A stretch of DNA of 64,000 bases from Eledone cirrhosa. Lineage: Eukaryota. Below, piece by piece: positions 5,671-63,812 of the stretch. The notes beneath the pieces were generated by a model that was not told the DNA's origin, did no database searches, and was given only the letters and a program-made list of their open reading frames with translations. Positions within the stretch are counted from its first letter, which is position 1. Every line of letters starts with the position of its first letter. The stretch spans positions 45,632,001-45,696,000 of the forward strand of contig OZ024749.1 in assembly GCA_964016885.1 (NCBI GenBank). Reading direction: 5' to 3'. The position numbers were made by a program, and so were the translations under genes.

Positions 5671-6188
5671 TCAATATTTACTCCAATGCCTGGAAAGTAC
5701 AGATAGTATTAATAACTGGGAATATTTAGACACTCAATAAACGGTTAAAATAGGAAATATATTCCGTGATTGTAATGCAGGATAATCAGAAATTCTTTCT
5801 GGTGGACATCAACATCATACTCGGACATTCACTCCATGAATGGGCGAAACATACCGAGATTGTTCCCGAAATGGAGCAATTACAACGCAACAAATTGTAC
5901 ATTCATCCAAAGGTTTGTAACACTTTTGGATGAGTCCCCCAAGTTTTGCTAGCTGGAAATTTAGGTTCAAGCAGCAATAATTCTTCGTAATAAACGTTTG
6001 TAGTAACGCAAGGATTAGGACATATTGTGAAGTTAAACATAGTAAATTAGACTGATTAGTGTCCAGAATTTCGCATGACATATTTTATTAATTTTTGATT
6101 TTCTTTGTAATGTGGGATGTGACAGAAGTTTAAATGTTATATGGCCTGTCAACACTACACACTTTCACAAACGTATGTAAATATACAT

Positions 6189-6282
<94 letters not shown>

Positions 6283-6413
6283 TATATATATATAGATGTA
6301 TATATATATGTATATAGATATGTATATATATATATAACGAAGGAAATGTGGTAAGGAACCAGGTGGACCATAACACACCAAAGTACTCAATACTTAGGCT
6401 AGTAGAGTGGGTA

Positions 6414-6551
6414 ATAGAAACGAGTAGGACCTCGACGGCTGAGCTCAAGCCGTTTCGACGGCTAATTCTGGACTAAAATTTTAGTCCAAAATTTTAGTCC
6501 AGAATTAGCCGTCGAAACAGCTTGAGCTCAGCCGTCGGGGTCCTACTCGTT

Positions 6552-6556
<5 letters not shown>
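6414..6556. repeat. fold-back palindrome (arms ~69 bp) made of two hammerhead 3' halves
   Basis: 6414-6482 is the near-perfect reverse complement of 6488-6556. Each arm reads outward GTC-GAAA-CRGCTTGAGCTCAGCCG-TC-GRGGTCC. A single-arm homologue lies at 62927-62988. Confidence 0.95.
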
Positions 6557-6650
<94 letters not shown>

Positions 6651-6695
6651 GTATATATATATATATCTGTATATATATATGTATATACATACTTG

Positions 6696-6730
<35 letters not shown>

Positions 6731-7206
6731 TTATATGAACGTATGCGAGCGTCAGTGTGTGTATGTGTGTTTGTGAGAAGAGCATTGTAAGATCACATTG
6801 ATTATAGTGTATTTGTACTATGAAATCAAATGTTCAGAACGGAAGTATTTTTGAAAAGATAACCCAGCTTTTGTTATGCATTATTGCCTTGATGAAATAT
6901 GTATAGTCGTCACAATGAAAGATCATTAGAGATTACAAAGTTTAGTGTTTATGGAGCTGTTCTGTCGAGTAGTTCACGACCATTAGTTGTGTATCAAATA
7001 CATATATTTCTGACGGAAATACGATTTAGAAAACGTTGTTGATTAGAAGCAGCTATATAAGATATATATTTGTAAATGTATATGTTTCCGGGTTAGTGTG
7101 TATGTGGTTTTGTTGATATGGATGTATGTATGTATGTATACATGTATATAGATATATATGTGTGTGTGCCTGTAAGTTAATGTGTATGTGTAGCCGTATG
7201 TATCTG

Positions 7207-9555: not shown

Positions 9556-9984
9556 TACGATATATTAACAAATGGAAACAATATTTATAAAACCATATTT
9601 ATTTCATTATACATATTTCAAGGACACCAAGTTAAATTATGATGTGCTTTCATCAGATAAAATATAATATAGAGCAGTTTTATAAATAAATATTGACATA
9701 CCCTTAAAGAATGCGACCATTTCTGTTAGAAGCTTATTTAAATCTACTCTGATTTAAAAAATATCCGAAACTAATTTACATAATAGTATAAATTTATAAC
9801 CCCAATATCCGGGAGCTTCCAACAGAAATGGTTGCAATCTTTAAAGGTATGTCAATATTTATTTATAAAACTACTCTATATTATATTTTATCTTATGAAA
9901 GCCCACCATTATTTAACTTGGTGTCCTTGTTAATGAAATAAATATGGTTTTATAAATATAGTTTCCATTTGTTAATATATCGTA
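9556..9984. mobile_element. long inverted repeat (arms ~175 bp) of a hammerhead-bearing, PLE pLTR-like element
   Basis: 9556-9734 is the reverse complement of 9814-9984. Homologous to 62180-62320. The downstream motif AACAGATTAAAGTTTACGCAAAGAATCGCTGC (~10317-10358) is shared with the reverse complement of 62106-62148. Confidence 0.8.
9600..9664 (-). ncRNA. minimal type I hammerhead ribozyme
   Basis: Minus strand reads TATTTTAT CTGATGA AAGCACATC-ataatttaactt-GGTGTCCTT GAAA TATGTA TA^ATGAAATA. Core intact, 8-bp stem I, stem II 8/9 paired, quasi-palindromic stem III, AUA cleavage triplet. Confidence 0.8.
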
Positions 9985-17016: not shown

Positions 17017-17052
17017 TCTTAACGTTTCGGACGCTAGTCTTTCATCAGAAGA
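17017..17052 (-). ncRNA. degenerate minimal hammerhead ribozyme (GAAACGTT type)
   Basis: Minus strand reads TCTT CTGATGA A AGAC-tagc-GTCC GAAA CG TT^AAGA. Stem III is a loopless palindrome, the first stem II pair is mismatched (A-C) and stem I is only 4 bp. Confidence 0.55.
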
Positions 17053-37291: not shown

Positions 37292-37390
37292 GGAGGGAGA
37301 TAGAGAGAGATATATAAGAATTGGTCGTAGCTACGGCAGCGAAGCCCCTTTGCCTAGCTAAATCATATGTCAAACTTTATATAGTCATAT

Positions 37391-37807
37391 AGGCAGAAGG
37401 TACGCAAGAATTAGCCGGTACTGTTACAATATTGGAAATAATAATACGTGTTTATAACATGATAGCTTTATTTAAAATATTGCATACATTTCATTGCACA
37501 TAGAAGAATTGGTCGTAAGTACGGCAGCGAAGCCACTTTGCTTTGCTAAATCATGAGCATATAAACAGTTTGACTTATGATTTAGCAAAGCAAAGAGGCT
37601 TCGCTGCCGTAGTTGCGATTAATTCTTCTATATGCAATGAAAATATAAGCAATATTTTAAATAAAACTTTCATGTTATAAACACGTAGTATTATTTCCAA
37701 TAAAGTACCAGTAATGAACTGATTATTTGCTGGCCTTGTGCTTAAAGTAGAAACAATTATTTCCAATATCGTAACACTACCGGCTAATTCTTGCGTACCT
37801 TCTGCCT
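37391..37807. repeat. fold-back palindrome (arms ~167 bp) with a SINE inserted in the right arm
   Basis: 37391-37557 is the reverse complement of 37574-37807 once the SINE is removed. A third partial copy lies at ~37316-37376. Confidence 0.92.
37700..37761 (+). mobile_element. SINE family A, 3' fragment
   Basis: TSD ATTATTTCCAATA at 37690-37702 and 37756-37768. The empty site is preserved in the opposite palindrome arm. Confidence 0.93.
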
Positions 37808-52107: not shown

Positions 52108-52287
52108 AATTGAACACTGTGGAATTATTTTCCAATAAATTAGACATTCATTATATAATTTTATTTTACAATTTTCGTGATATCCTTTTATTGAGATCAC
52201 ATCATAAAAGGATTTCACGAACATTGTAAAATAAAATTATATAATGAACGTATAATTTCTTGGAAAATAATTCCACAGTATTCAATT
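52108..52287. repeat. fold-back palindrome (arms 84 bp, 12-nt loop)
   Basis: 52108-52191 is the reverse complement of 52204-52287 with few mismatches. Confidence 0.93.
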
Positions 52288-58630: not shown

Positions 58631-58833
58631 GTGGATTGGCAGTATCGGTAGATTGGCAGTATCGGTAGAGGGTTGGACGCCATGCTTTCCAGCATAGTTA
58701 CGTCCCTTTACGATCTGAGTTCAAATCCCGTCGAGGTTGACTTTGCCTTTCATCCTTACGGGGTCGATAAAATAAAGTACCAGTAATGCACTGGGTAATT
58801 GCTGGCCTTATGCCTAAAGTAGAAACAGTTATT
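58631..58833 (+). mobile_element. SINE family A, full length with a duplicated 17-bp A-box segment
   Basis: GATTGGCAGTATCGGTA occurs twice. TSD GTTATTTTATAATTGT at 58617-58632 and 58828-58843. Confidence 0.95.
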
Positions 58834-58835
58834 TT

Positions 58836-59007
58836 ATAATTGTTTCTACTTTTGGCACAAGGCCAGCAATTATCCCAGTGCATTACTGGTACTTTATTTT
58901 ATCGACCCCATAAGGATGGAAGTCATCCTTATGGGGTCGATAAAATGAAGTACCAGTAATGCACTGGCATAATTGCTGGCTTTGTGCCAAAAGTAGAAAC
59001 AATTATT
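58836..59007. mobile_element. head-to-head pair of SINE A 3' halves forming a palindrome
   Basis: 58836-58918 (-) and 58924-59006 (+) are reverse complements separated by a 5-nt spacer. Confidence 0.93.
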
Positions 59008-62101: not shown

Positions 62102-62321
62102 ATGAAAGGGTGAAGGCAGCGATTCTTTGCTTAAACTTTAATCTGTTATTTTCATAAAGAAATATATATATATATACATATCAATGATATTAATACATGG
62201 AAACTATCTTTATAAACTATCTACATATTTATTTTATTATATATATTTCAAGGGTACCAACATTTTTGTACGCCCTCATCAGATAAAATACAAAAATTGT
62301 TTTATAAATATTGATATATCC
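62099..62321 (-). mobile_element. hammerhead-bearing PLE pLTR-like unit, same family as 9.6-10.4 kb
   Basis: Same motif order as 9814-10358 in the opposite orientation. Further fragments at ~62565-62680 and 63001-63030. Confidence 0.75.
62230..62290 (-). ncRNA. minimal type I hammerhead ribozyme
   Basis: Minus strand reads TATTTTAT CTGATGA GGGCGTAC-aaaaatgttg-GTACCCTT GAAA TATATA TA^ATAAAATA. 8-bp stem I, stem II 7/8 paired (two G-U), palindromic stem III. Confidence 0.82.
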
Positions 62322-62552: not shown

Positions 62553-62687
62553 GGATAATAACATAAATATGGTTTATTAATATCATTGATATTATACTCC
62601 AGATATTATACTCTAGAAAACTGTAGAGTGCTTCGAATCTGTTATAATTAAATTTGTTGAATATCTAACAAATTAAATATCTATTTG

Positions 62688-62738
<51 letters not shown>

Positions 62739-62926
62739 AGATAGATAGATAGATAGAAACATGCATATATACATACATGTAGATAAATAGTTATATGAAT
62801 AGTATGTATATGTCCAAATATTACTTCCATAAAATAATTAAGTAGAGGATAATTAATAGATGGTGTAGAACATAACCTTTGTTTTACAGCACTCACATAG
62901 AGAAACATACACTCACACCCATACAC

Positions 62927-62988
62927 ACAGCTATCTAGCTGTCGAAATGGACGGAGCTCAGCCGTCGGGGGTCCTGACTTTTTTCCTA
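62927..62988 (+). repeat. truncated hammerhead (stem II plus 3' half), same family as 6414-6556
   Basis: ACAGCTA-tc-TAGCTGTC GAAA TGGACGGAGCTCAGCCG TC GGGGGTCC. The CTGANGA core is absent. Confidence 0.7.
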
Positions 62989-63098
62989 TATACATATATA
63001 TAACTTTAATCTGTTATTTTAATAAATAAATATATATATATATATATATAAGTAGTTCCATAACAGTTAGTCCAATCTTTCTCTCTCTCTCACTGTCC

Positions 63099-63137
<39 letters not shown>

Positions 63138-63812
63138 TCTTTCTCTCTCTCTCTATATATATATATACAGAGAGATAGAGAGGGCGGAGAGAGGAAAAAA
63201 ATGAAAGAGAATTGCTTCTGTAATATTCAGAAATATATACCATGTTTTAATCTTCACCTTCTATATACACCGAATCTTTATTAACATTTCACTCTATATA
63301 GCTAACTATGTATCTTACCTATTCCTGTAAAATGGTATTCCTATCTACATTTCTATGTCATTATACTCTCTTTCCCTCCTTTATCGTCTCAGGCTTTCAA
63401 TCCCTACTTCATTCATTTCTATCTAGATGTGAATACTTAACATTAATTTCACTATATAAGTCTCTGTTCTTCTCTAATACCATACATTATTTAACATCTT
63501 TTCTCTCTCCCACGTACTCACTTTATATCGCTTTATATCTATTTAACTAGCTCTTTCTCTCTTTCTCTCTCTCCCCCCCTCTCTCCATCCCACCCCCACC
63601 CCCTCTCTATCTCTCTCTCTGGTCCACTCTTCCACTTATTGCTCTTCACCGACACCATTCCGCTGCACAACTTCATTCTTGTCTTCCCGTAGCTATTGTA
63701 CATTTTAGGAGATCGTGTGTAGTCAGTGTAATAACCACACAGATATTACACTCGTTATATTATTGGCTGTCAGCTACAACATGTGCCCTTGGCTGTAATT
63801 TCATGTCCCGTG

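Follow-up and report, generated by a model that had tools for sequence, protein, structure and literature searches.

A head-to-head insertion in Eledone cirrhosa with its junction near the tip of a predicted hammerhead stem II

The window analysed here, 64,000 nt of Eledone cirrhosa DNA (contig OZ024749.1, positions 45,632,001 to 45,696,000), carries at 6336-6556 an insert of ~220 bases that is made of two back-to-back 3′ ends of an abundant repeat family and sits in (TA)n. We consider it somewhat probable that this short head-to-head insert arose when a reverse transcriptase stalled at the tip of a predicted stem II and the cDNA folded back and copied itself. A more tentative proposal, which we regard as possible without expecting it, is that the long stem II of the hammerhead is a preferred stop for the enzyme and that the ribozyme fold sets where most short copies of the family truncate and invert. 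The locus by itself is an ordinary dead insertion. If breakpoints do cluster in stem II, the ribozyme fold shapes insertions structurally, apart from cleavage, and if the stem II reading is true, the genome is seeded with near-perfect hairpins that lack the catalytic core. The abundance of the family makes such a hot spot testable with one assembly and one alignment. The features to which we refer are as follows.

6180..6335, no strand: left (TA)n/(GA)n microsatellite flank, from the sequence; the likely target
6336..6413, minus strand: 78-nt family tail, in the left arm only; bounded by reads and contigs that end in (TA)n at either boundary
6414..6433, minus strand: left arm, first family end and predicted stem I 3′ strand, from the sequence
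6434..6456, minus strand: left arm, GAAA, 5-bp stem III with GAGCTC loop, and TC; predicted 3′ half of a type I hammerhead
6457..6477, minus strand: left arm, predicted stem II 3′ strand, up to the point where the family consensus departs (loose ends behind 6477)
6475..6500, no strand: inversion junction, a 13-nt unit with A4T4 at its start, present in two exact copies where the natural hairpin would have its tip
6493..6556, plus strand: right arm, stem II 3′ strand, GAAA, stem III, TC and stem I strand, ending at the tail-less family end; match with E=4e-14
6557..6730, no strand: right (TA)n flank, from the sequence
62927..62988, plus strand: lone 5′-truncated relative, carrying a 7-bp hairpin at the 5′ end and probably belonging to a second subfamily

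Geometry of the insert and abundance of its family

The window as a whole is AT-rich, microsatellite-dense DNA of animal type. Base pairing joins 6414-6482 to 6488-6556 at 66 of the 69 arm positions (the exceptions are 6418/6552, 6432/6538 and 6451/6519), and the DNA fold of the palindrome reached -79 kcal/mol with a z of -26, which none of 200 shuffles equalled. Reading outward, each arm displays (i) GAAA, (ii) a 5-bp stem whose loop holds the palindrome GAGCTC, (iii) TC and (iv) a G-rich strand; the change at 6519 costs the right arm one pair of the 5-bp stem. At the centre, 6475-6487 is repeated exactly as 6488-6500, a 13-nt tandem duplication, and an 8-nt word occurs twice per arm, 23 nt apart. 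A sequence-only reading of this DNA had described a palindrome with a long central stem at 6414..6556, and both the stem and the arms were found as described; the element itself starts earlier, at 6336, with the 78-nt left-arm tail that had been overlooked. The element sequence that remains amounts to 140 + 70 nt. Since the flanks are (TA)n, a target-site duplication, if any, is unreadable.

Reads and contigs of four out of ten listed sequencing runs (X1, X4, X7 and X8) were aligned to 6336-6513 at 80% likeness, giving 14,376 contigs from X1, 382 from X4, 5 from X7 and 23,187 reads from X8. By the X1 and X8 counts, the family is high-copy. The tail at 6336-6413 is joined to the core in other copies, with aligned pieces at 6336-6430 and 6336-6459 spanning both. 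Loose ends in (TA)n were observed before 6414 in 2910 reads of X8 and 56 contigs of X1, and before 6347 in 1221 reads of X8; the family has two ends 78 nt apart, each of which runs out into (TA)n. Eleven contigs of run X4 possess the tail and at 6417 continue into a different core sequence, which suggests that the tail is shared with other families. Scans for the pattern in contigs from viruses, metagenomes and prokaryote genomes returned 0 loci.

At two of the three arm mismatches the right arm holds the family letter and the left arm a private one (6418, 9294 of 9629 reads; 6432, 10430 of 10789 reads), and for the third, 6451/6519, no family variant was among those listed; hence the mismatches likely arose after insertion. 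The depth of X1 fell from 399,323 at 6474-6479 to 8,600 at 6480-6485, and the summed depth beyond the centre was ~1,400-1,500 against a peak of 4.3 million, a fraction of ~0.03% that is not a copy number. By X1 depth, exact tip-centred palindromes are a small minority of the family. Nine deletion rows at 6480-6492 revealed that some contigs cross the palindrome centre at different spacings, possibly as natural variants or as further fold-backs, and no listed contig piece covers the entire stretch of this allele.

Two further signals were set aside. Sharp read ends in X8 at 6467 (7187 of 10050) and 6477 (813 of 1381) had been candidates for truncation hot spots; both coincide with AATT sites in a RAD library and were read as restriction cuts by a presumed enzyme. 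A contig of X7 (depth 3.9) that reads as a flawless palindrome about the AATT at 6464-6467 was left uncounted as a possible library artefact.

The predicted half hammerhead and its stem II

The motif is predicted, from its 3′ half, to be a type I hammerhead. GAAA, stem III, UH and the 3′ strand of stem I are all present in the left arm and are weakened in the right arm and in the homologue at 62927-62988; the architecture of hammerheads (PMC4209133) would place cleavage between 6434 and 6433. Both arms had been noted to lack the CTGANGA half, and indeed the pattern [CT]TGAN[GA]A was found on neither strand in 6036-6856, nor in 62600-63300. With the CUGANGA half absent, the insert is likely dead and without ribozyme activity. 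The consensus of the loose ends behind 6477 is 30 letters long and ends just short of the expected place of CTGANGA, and no CTGANGA occurred among the 20 loose-end rows listed of 390. A search of 6336-6556 against Rfam with E up to 10 gave 55 matches, none of them a hammerhead; 53 were to microRNA hairpin models and all fell under the gathering score (in the scan of the whole window, 150 of 339 matches were listed). A missing hammerhead match is expected here, because only half a motif is present.

The family differs from the window sequence behind 6477, as evidenced by 70 contigs of X1, seven of X4 and one of X7, and the runs agree with one another over the first dozen or so letters (agreement 0.57 in X1, 0.56 in X4 and 1 in X7). 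By eye, the loose-end consensus, itself with an agreement of 0.57, pairs imperfectly with 6461-6477 into a hairpin of ~7 bp at the tip round an A/T loop, followed by an internal loop and by a lower helix in which the last visible consensus letters pair with 6461-6464. The natural stem II would therefore be long and imperfect, spanning some 55-60 nt. Since the 5′ strand of other copies differs beyond 6477, it was the inversion that created the perfect stem at the centre, which is not the usual stem II of the family; if the family sequence behind 6477 pairs back on 6461-6477 as it seems to by eye, the natural hairpin has its tip at the junction. The earlier equation of the central stem with the ribozyme stem II was consequently wrong for the perfect stem and probably right in that the junction falls at the tip of that hairpin.

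Origin and placement of the junction

On the account that we favour, a nick in (TA)n would prime cDNA synthesis at the outer family end, 6336, and the enzyme would copy the tail, the stem I strand, stem III, GAAA and the 3′ strand of stem II, and would stop at the stem II tip. In retroviral enzymes, pausing occurs within the first half of an RNA stem. The end of the cDNA, a self-complementary copy of the A4T4 loop, would then prime on itself, one slip at this step giving the 13-nt duplication, and copying would run back to the inner family end (the 6414 equivalent), which would finally be joined to (TA)n.

Fifteen joint rows were obtained from the reads and contigs, 12 of which change strand. 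The lower ends of these 12 are spread over 6370-6437, and all 12 higher ends fall in 6461-6477, the stem II 3′ strand up to the tip; four of the 12 joints were found in both X1 and X8. Under a uniform null, with rows that are not fully independent, such a concentration has a P of 1e-5, 0.001 or 0.027 when the lower limit is set at 6434, 6448 or 6455, respectively. Ten of the higher ends, however, lie at 6464 or 6473-6477, where subfamilies depart from the reference, and two joints are left once these are removed. The reference stretch limits joints to 6477 or below, which renders junctions farther upstream invisible, and the rows may omit letters between the two sides of a strand change. With 10 of 12 joints at reference edges, the stem II hot spot is only suggested: the proposal that stem II is a recurrent stop or snap-back point is favoured by the placement of all 12 joints and weakened by this alignment-edge bias. 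In the asymmetric inversions, the shorter arm ends mostly at 6370-6374 and 6410-6417, in or beside the tail, and the cluster at 6410-6417 may be an alignment edge.

The bias bears directly on the reading that the position of the junction is not special, in which 5′ truncation with inversion could happen anywhere and short copies could not but break near the hammerhead, given its place ~40-140 nt from the 3′ end. We regard this as a substantial possibility, somewhat below an even chance. The joint data end at 6477 and favour alignment edges, as this reading would have it; yet none of the 12 higher ends falls in 6438-6460, the best-conserved and most visible part, and each of the two copies that the family has in the window is broken within stem II. 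Further evidence on its side came from the inverted pair at 9556-9984. Four non-SINE head-to-head pairs were compared in the window, of which the one at 6336-6556 joins at stem II. The pair at 9556-9984, 81% alike, belongs to another hammerhead-bearing family, with an intact CTGATGA core at 9656 (minus strand) and a decayed core near 9892 (plus strand), and its arms meet ~80 nt upstream of that core, where another hairpin, of 8 bp, lies (9737-9758). The 180-nt palindrome at 52108-52287 (90%) bears in its arms a GAAA-N4-TA word with an A-rich strand, 15-27 nt from the centre; the word resembles that of the minimal hammerheads of the window, and the locus is possibly a second half-hammerhead fold-back, while a profile of four hammerhead-like window copies matched neither 52108-52287 nor 6336-6556. 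The pair at 37419-37713 has no recognisable hammerhead word. Inversion therefore does not need stem II, given that 9556-9984 joins elsewhere and that Naiads make inverted 5′ copies without canonical hammerheads (PMC8557442); any hairpin may serve. The same two cases contradict the broader claim, made from the sequence alone, that stem II explains the inverted ends of Penelope-like insertions generally.

Other repeats were observed in the window. CTGATGA...GAAA motifs at 17048 (minus), 53426 (minus), 57289 (plus) and 62282 (minus) look like complete minimal hammerheads, the one at 62282 being related to 9656. At 37310-37807 a partial tandem accompanies an inverted repeat in a Penelope-like layout, and the 3′ end of a SINE has inserted into its right arm. 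A SINE-like repeat of 190 nt, which we take to resemble an octopus SINE, occurs in about 15 copies, at 1458, 8527, 10523, 12398, 18442, 21448, 31127, 41235, 43808, 44008, 46914, 53784, 57593, 58646 and 61526; at 58646-59007, copies are joined both inverted and in tandem.

The homologue (E=3e-4, envelope 62927-62998) begins in the stem II region, as had been pointed out from the sequence. Its letters correspond to variant rows 6447, 6448 and 6460 of the read alignment, and it also fits the loose end behind 6464 (987 reads) over the initial three letters of that end. These matches suggest a second subfamily, provided that the variants occur together on the same molecules. If so, the homologue would be cut ~11 nt upstream of GAAA, within the stem II 3′ strand, and the letters that precede it would be a 6-7-nt inverted copy; alternatively, its 5′ hairpin is a natural short stem II. 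A fold-back of this kind arises as a flank by chance at 137 of 63,763 window positions and at 11 of 3,973 CA-rich ones. Just past the homologue, 63001-63020 holds a short word that recurs near 62136 and 10317 and sits at the 3′ end of the 62282/9656 family.

The main rival to a cDNA fold-back is double priming, in which both nicked target strands prime cDNA, one at each family end, and the two products, each halted in stem II, are united at their ends with the help of A4T4. A Penelope-like protein has been described that both cuts and extends the two strands and uses two start sites (PMC11167929), and double priming would account for the exact coincidence of the right arm's end with the second family end. 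Microhomology was absent from 10 of the 12 strand-switch joints, so that for those joints stopping followed by joining fits better than priming by base pairing. The arms are nevertheless identical at the polymorphic positions 6421-6427, 6440 and 6465, as if copied from one template (two RNAs of one source copy would match too), and the 6-7-nt inverted piece of the homologue is too short for a second primed strand. Overall, we judge double priming unlikely, although it deserves to be taken seriously.

Less probable still is a reading without a hammerhead, in which the motif is just short inverted repeats clustered at a retroelement end; a hairpin would still set the junction. The missing CTGANGA at the window loci and in the 30-letter loose ends, the missing Rfam match and the 8-nt word, which allows other hairpins, agree with such a cluster, and a looser version of the 3′-half motif appeared in 59 of 2000 shuffles. 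The strict version, by a criterion chosen after viewing the sequence, appeared in nine of 5000, and the motif stands behind what seems a long natural hairpin and close to the 3′ end, a placement known from Penelope-like elements. Among the best 40 variants listed (118 further ones exist) none falls in GAAA or TC, which is not significant alone. We rate the cluster as improbable.

A palindrome formed after insertion, by repair of a hairpin-capped break or by template switching during replication at the natural hairpin, could account for the 13-nt central duplication as replication slippage; it would hardly account for a right arm that ends at the family-wide terminus and copies neither the tail nor the left flank, and we give this origin very little weight. 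Least credible of all are a foldback DNA transposon or MITE and an artefact of assembly. The long inverted arms at the ends and their TA context would suit the former, whereas most family depth stops before the centre (most copies are not whole palindromes with fixed terminal repeats, as the X1 drop revealed), the family continues non-inverted beyond 6477 and only one arm has a tail, and a fold-back at read level would not show the three differences between the arms, mismatches whose likely origin after insertion argues against an artefact.

Probable Penelope-like identity and known systems

A search for reverse transcriptase or GIY-YIG among the 110 complex ORFs of at least 60 aa in the window gave no match, so the Penelope-like identity rests on anatomy, by which the family is likely a Penelope-like retroelement. 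Insertions of these elements are marked by a tail at one end, an inverted 5′-truncated copy and (TA)n targets (PMC8557442), and the tail corresponds to two start sites of reverse transcription (PMC11167929); the EN+ traits present here are a head-to-head inverted 5′-truncated copy, a one-sided tail with two termini and a (TA)n target. At the two window loci the copies are not tandem; non-LTR retrozymes consist of tandem units each with a complete type I hammerhead. The motifs searched for were absent from the consensus file of PMC8557442, bar one unrelated 11-mer, and the motifs searched for were absent from the Naiad and Hydra octopus entries of its supplement; a motif search of full-text literature gave only an unrelated match.

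Head-to-head ends with junction palindromes and a self-priming reading of them are already known (PMC3846280), as are hammerheads with a palindromic loop 3 and in opposite-strand pairs (PMC4209133). A published link between stem II and inversion junctions was not found in the literature covered, a coverage outside which most subscription papers fall; the accessible parts of bioRxiv 10.64898/2026.07.22.740005 and PMC6431247 have no bearing on junctions. The origin of the tandem and inverted ends of Penelope-like elements is stated as an open question in PMC8557442.

Among the EN+ Penelope-like elements (Penelope/Poseidon, Neptune, Nematis, Hydra and Naiad; PMC8557442) the same truncation, 5′ inversion, one-end tail, (TA)n and near-3′ hammerhead are encountered; published tails measure 30-40 nt in the accessible sources, compared with 78 nt here. 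The hammerheads of these elements (PMC4209133) are mostly single motifs from truncated elements, with opposite-strand pairs 100-700 bp apart, and share the type I order, a palindromic loop 3 and, by the prediction made here, a large helix II with the present motif. They differ in stem III, which has its full 5 bp here, and in helix II, of 6-8 bp in the published motifs, where the natural stem II of our family would span 55-60 nt. PAc, the Poseidon of Anolis studied in vitro (PMC11167929), has the same two start sites bounding its tail and AT-rich targets, and its insertion did not need hammerhead cleavage; in its accessible text that study treats the starts of reverse transcription, not stops or inversion junctions. 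A parallel in geometry is the Penelope of Adineta vaga, for which self-priming was proposed in 2013 (PMC3846280): inverted pLTRs lie head to head with a junction palindrome, as in our insert. There, palindromes of 18-38 bp lie at the 5′ end of the pLTR and, in the accessible text, are given no link to a ribozyme; the authors invoke an antisense RNA template, whereas for the insert at 6336-6556 a cDNA folded back on itself would suffice.
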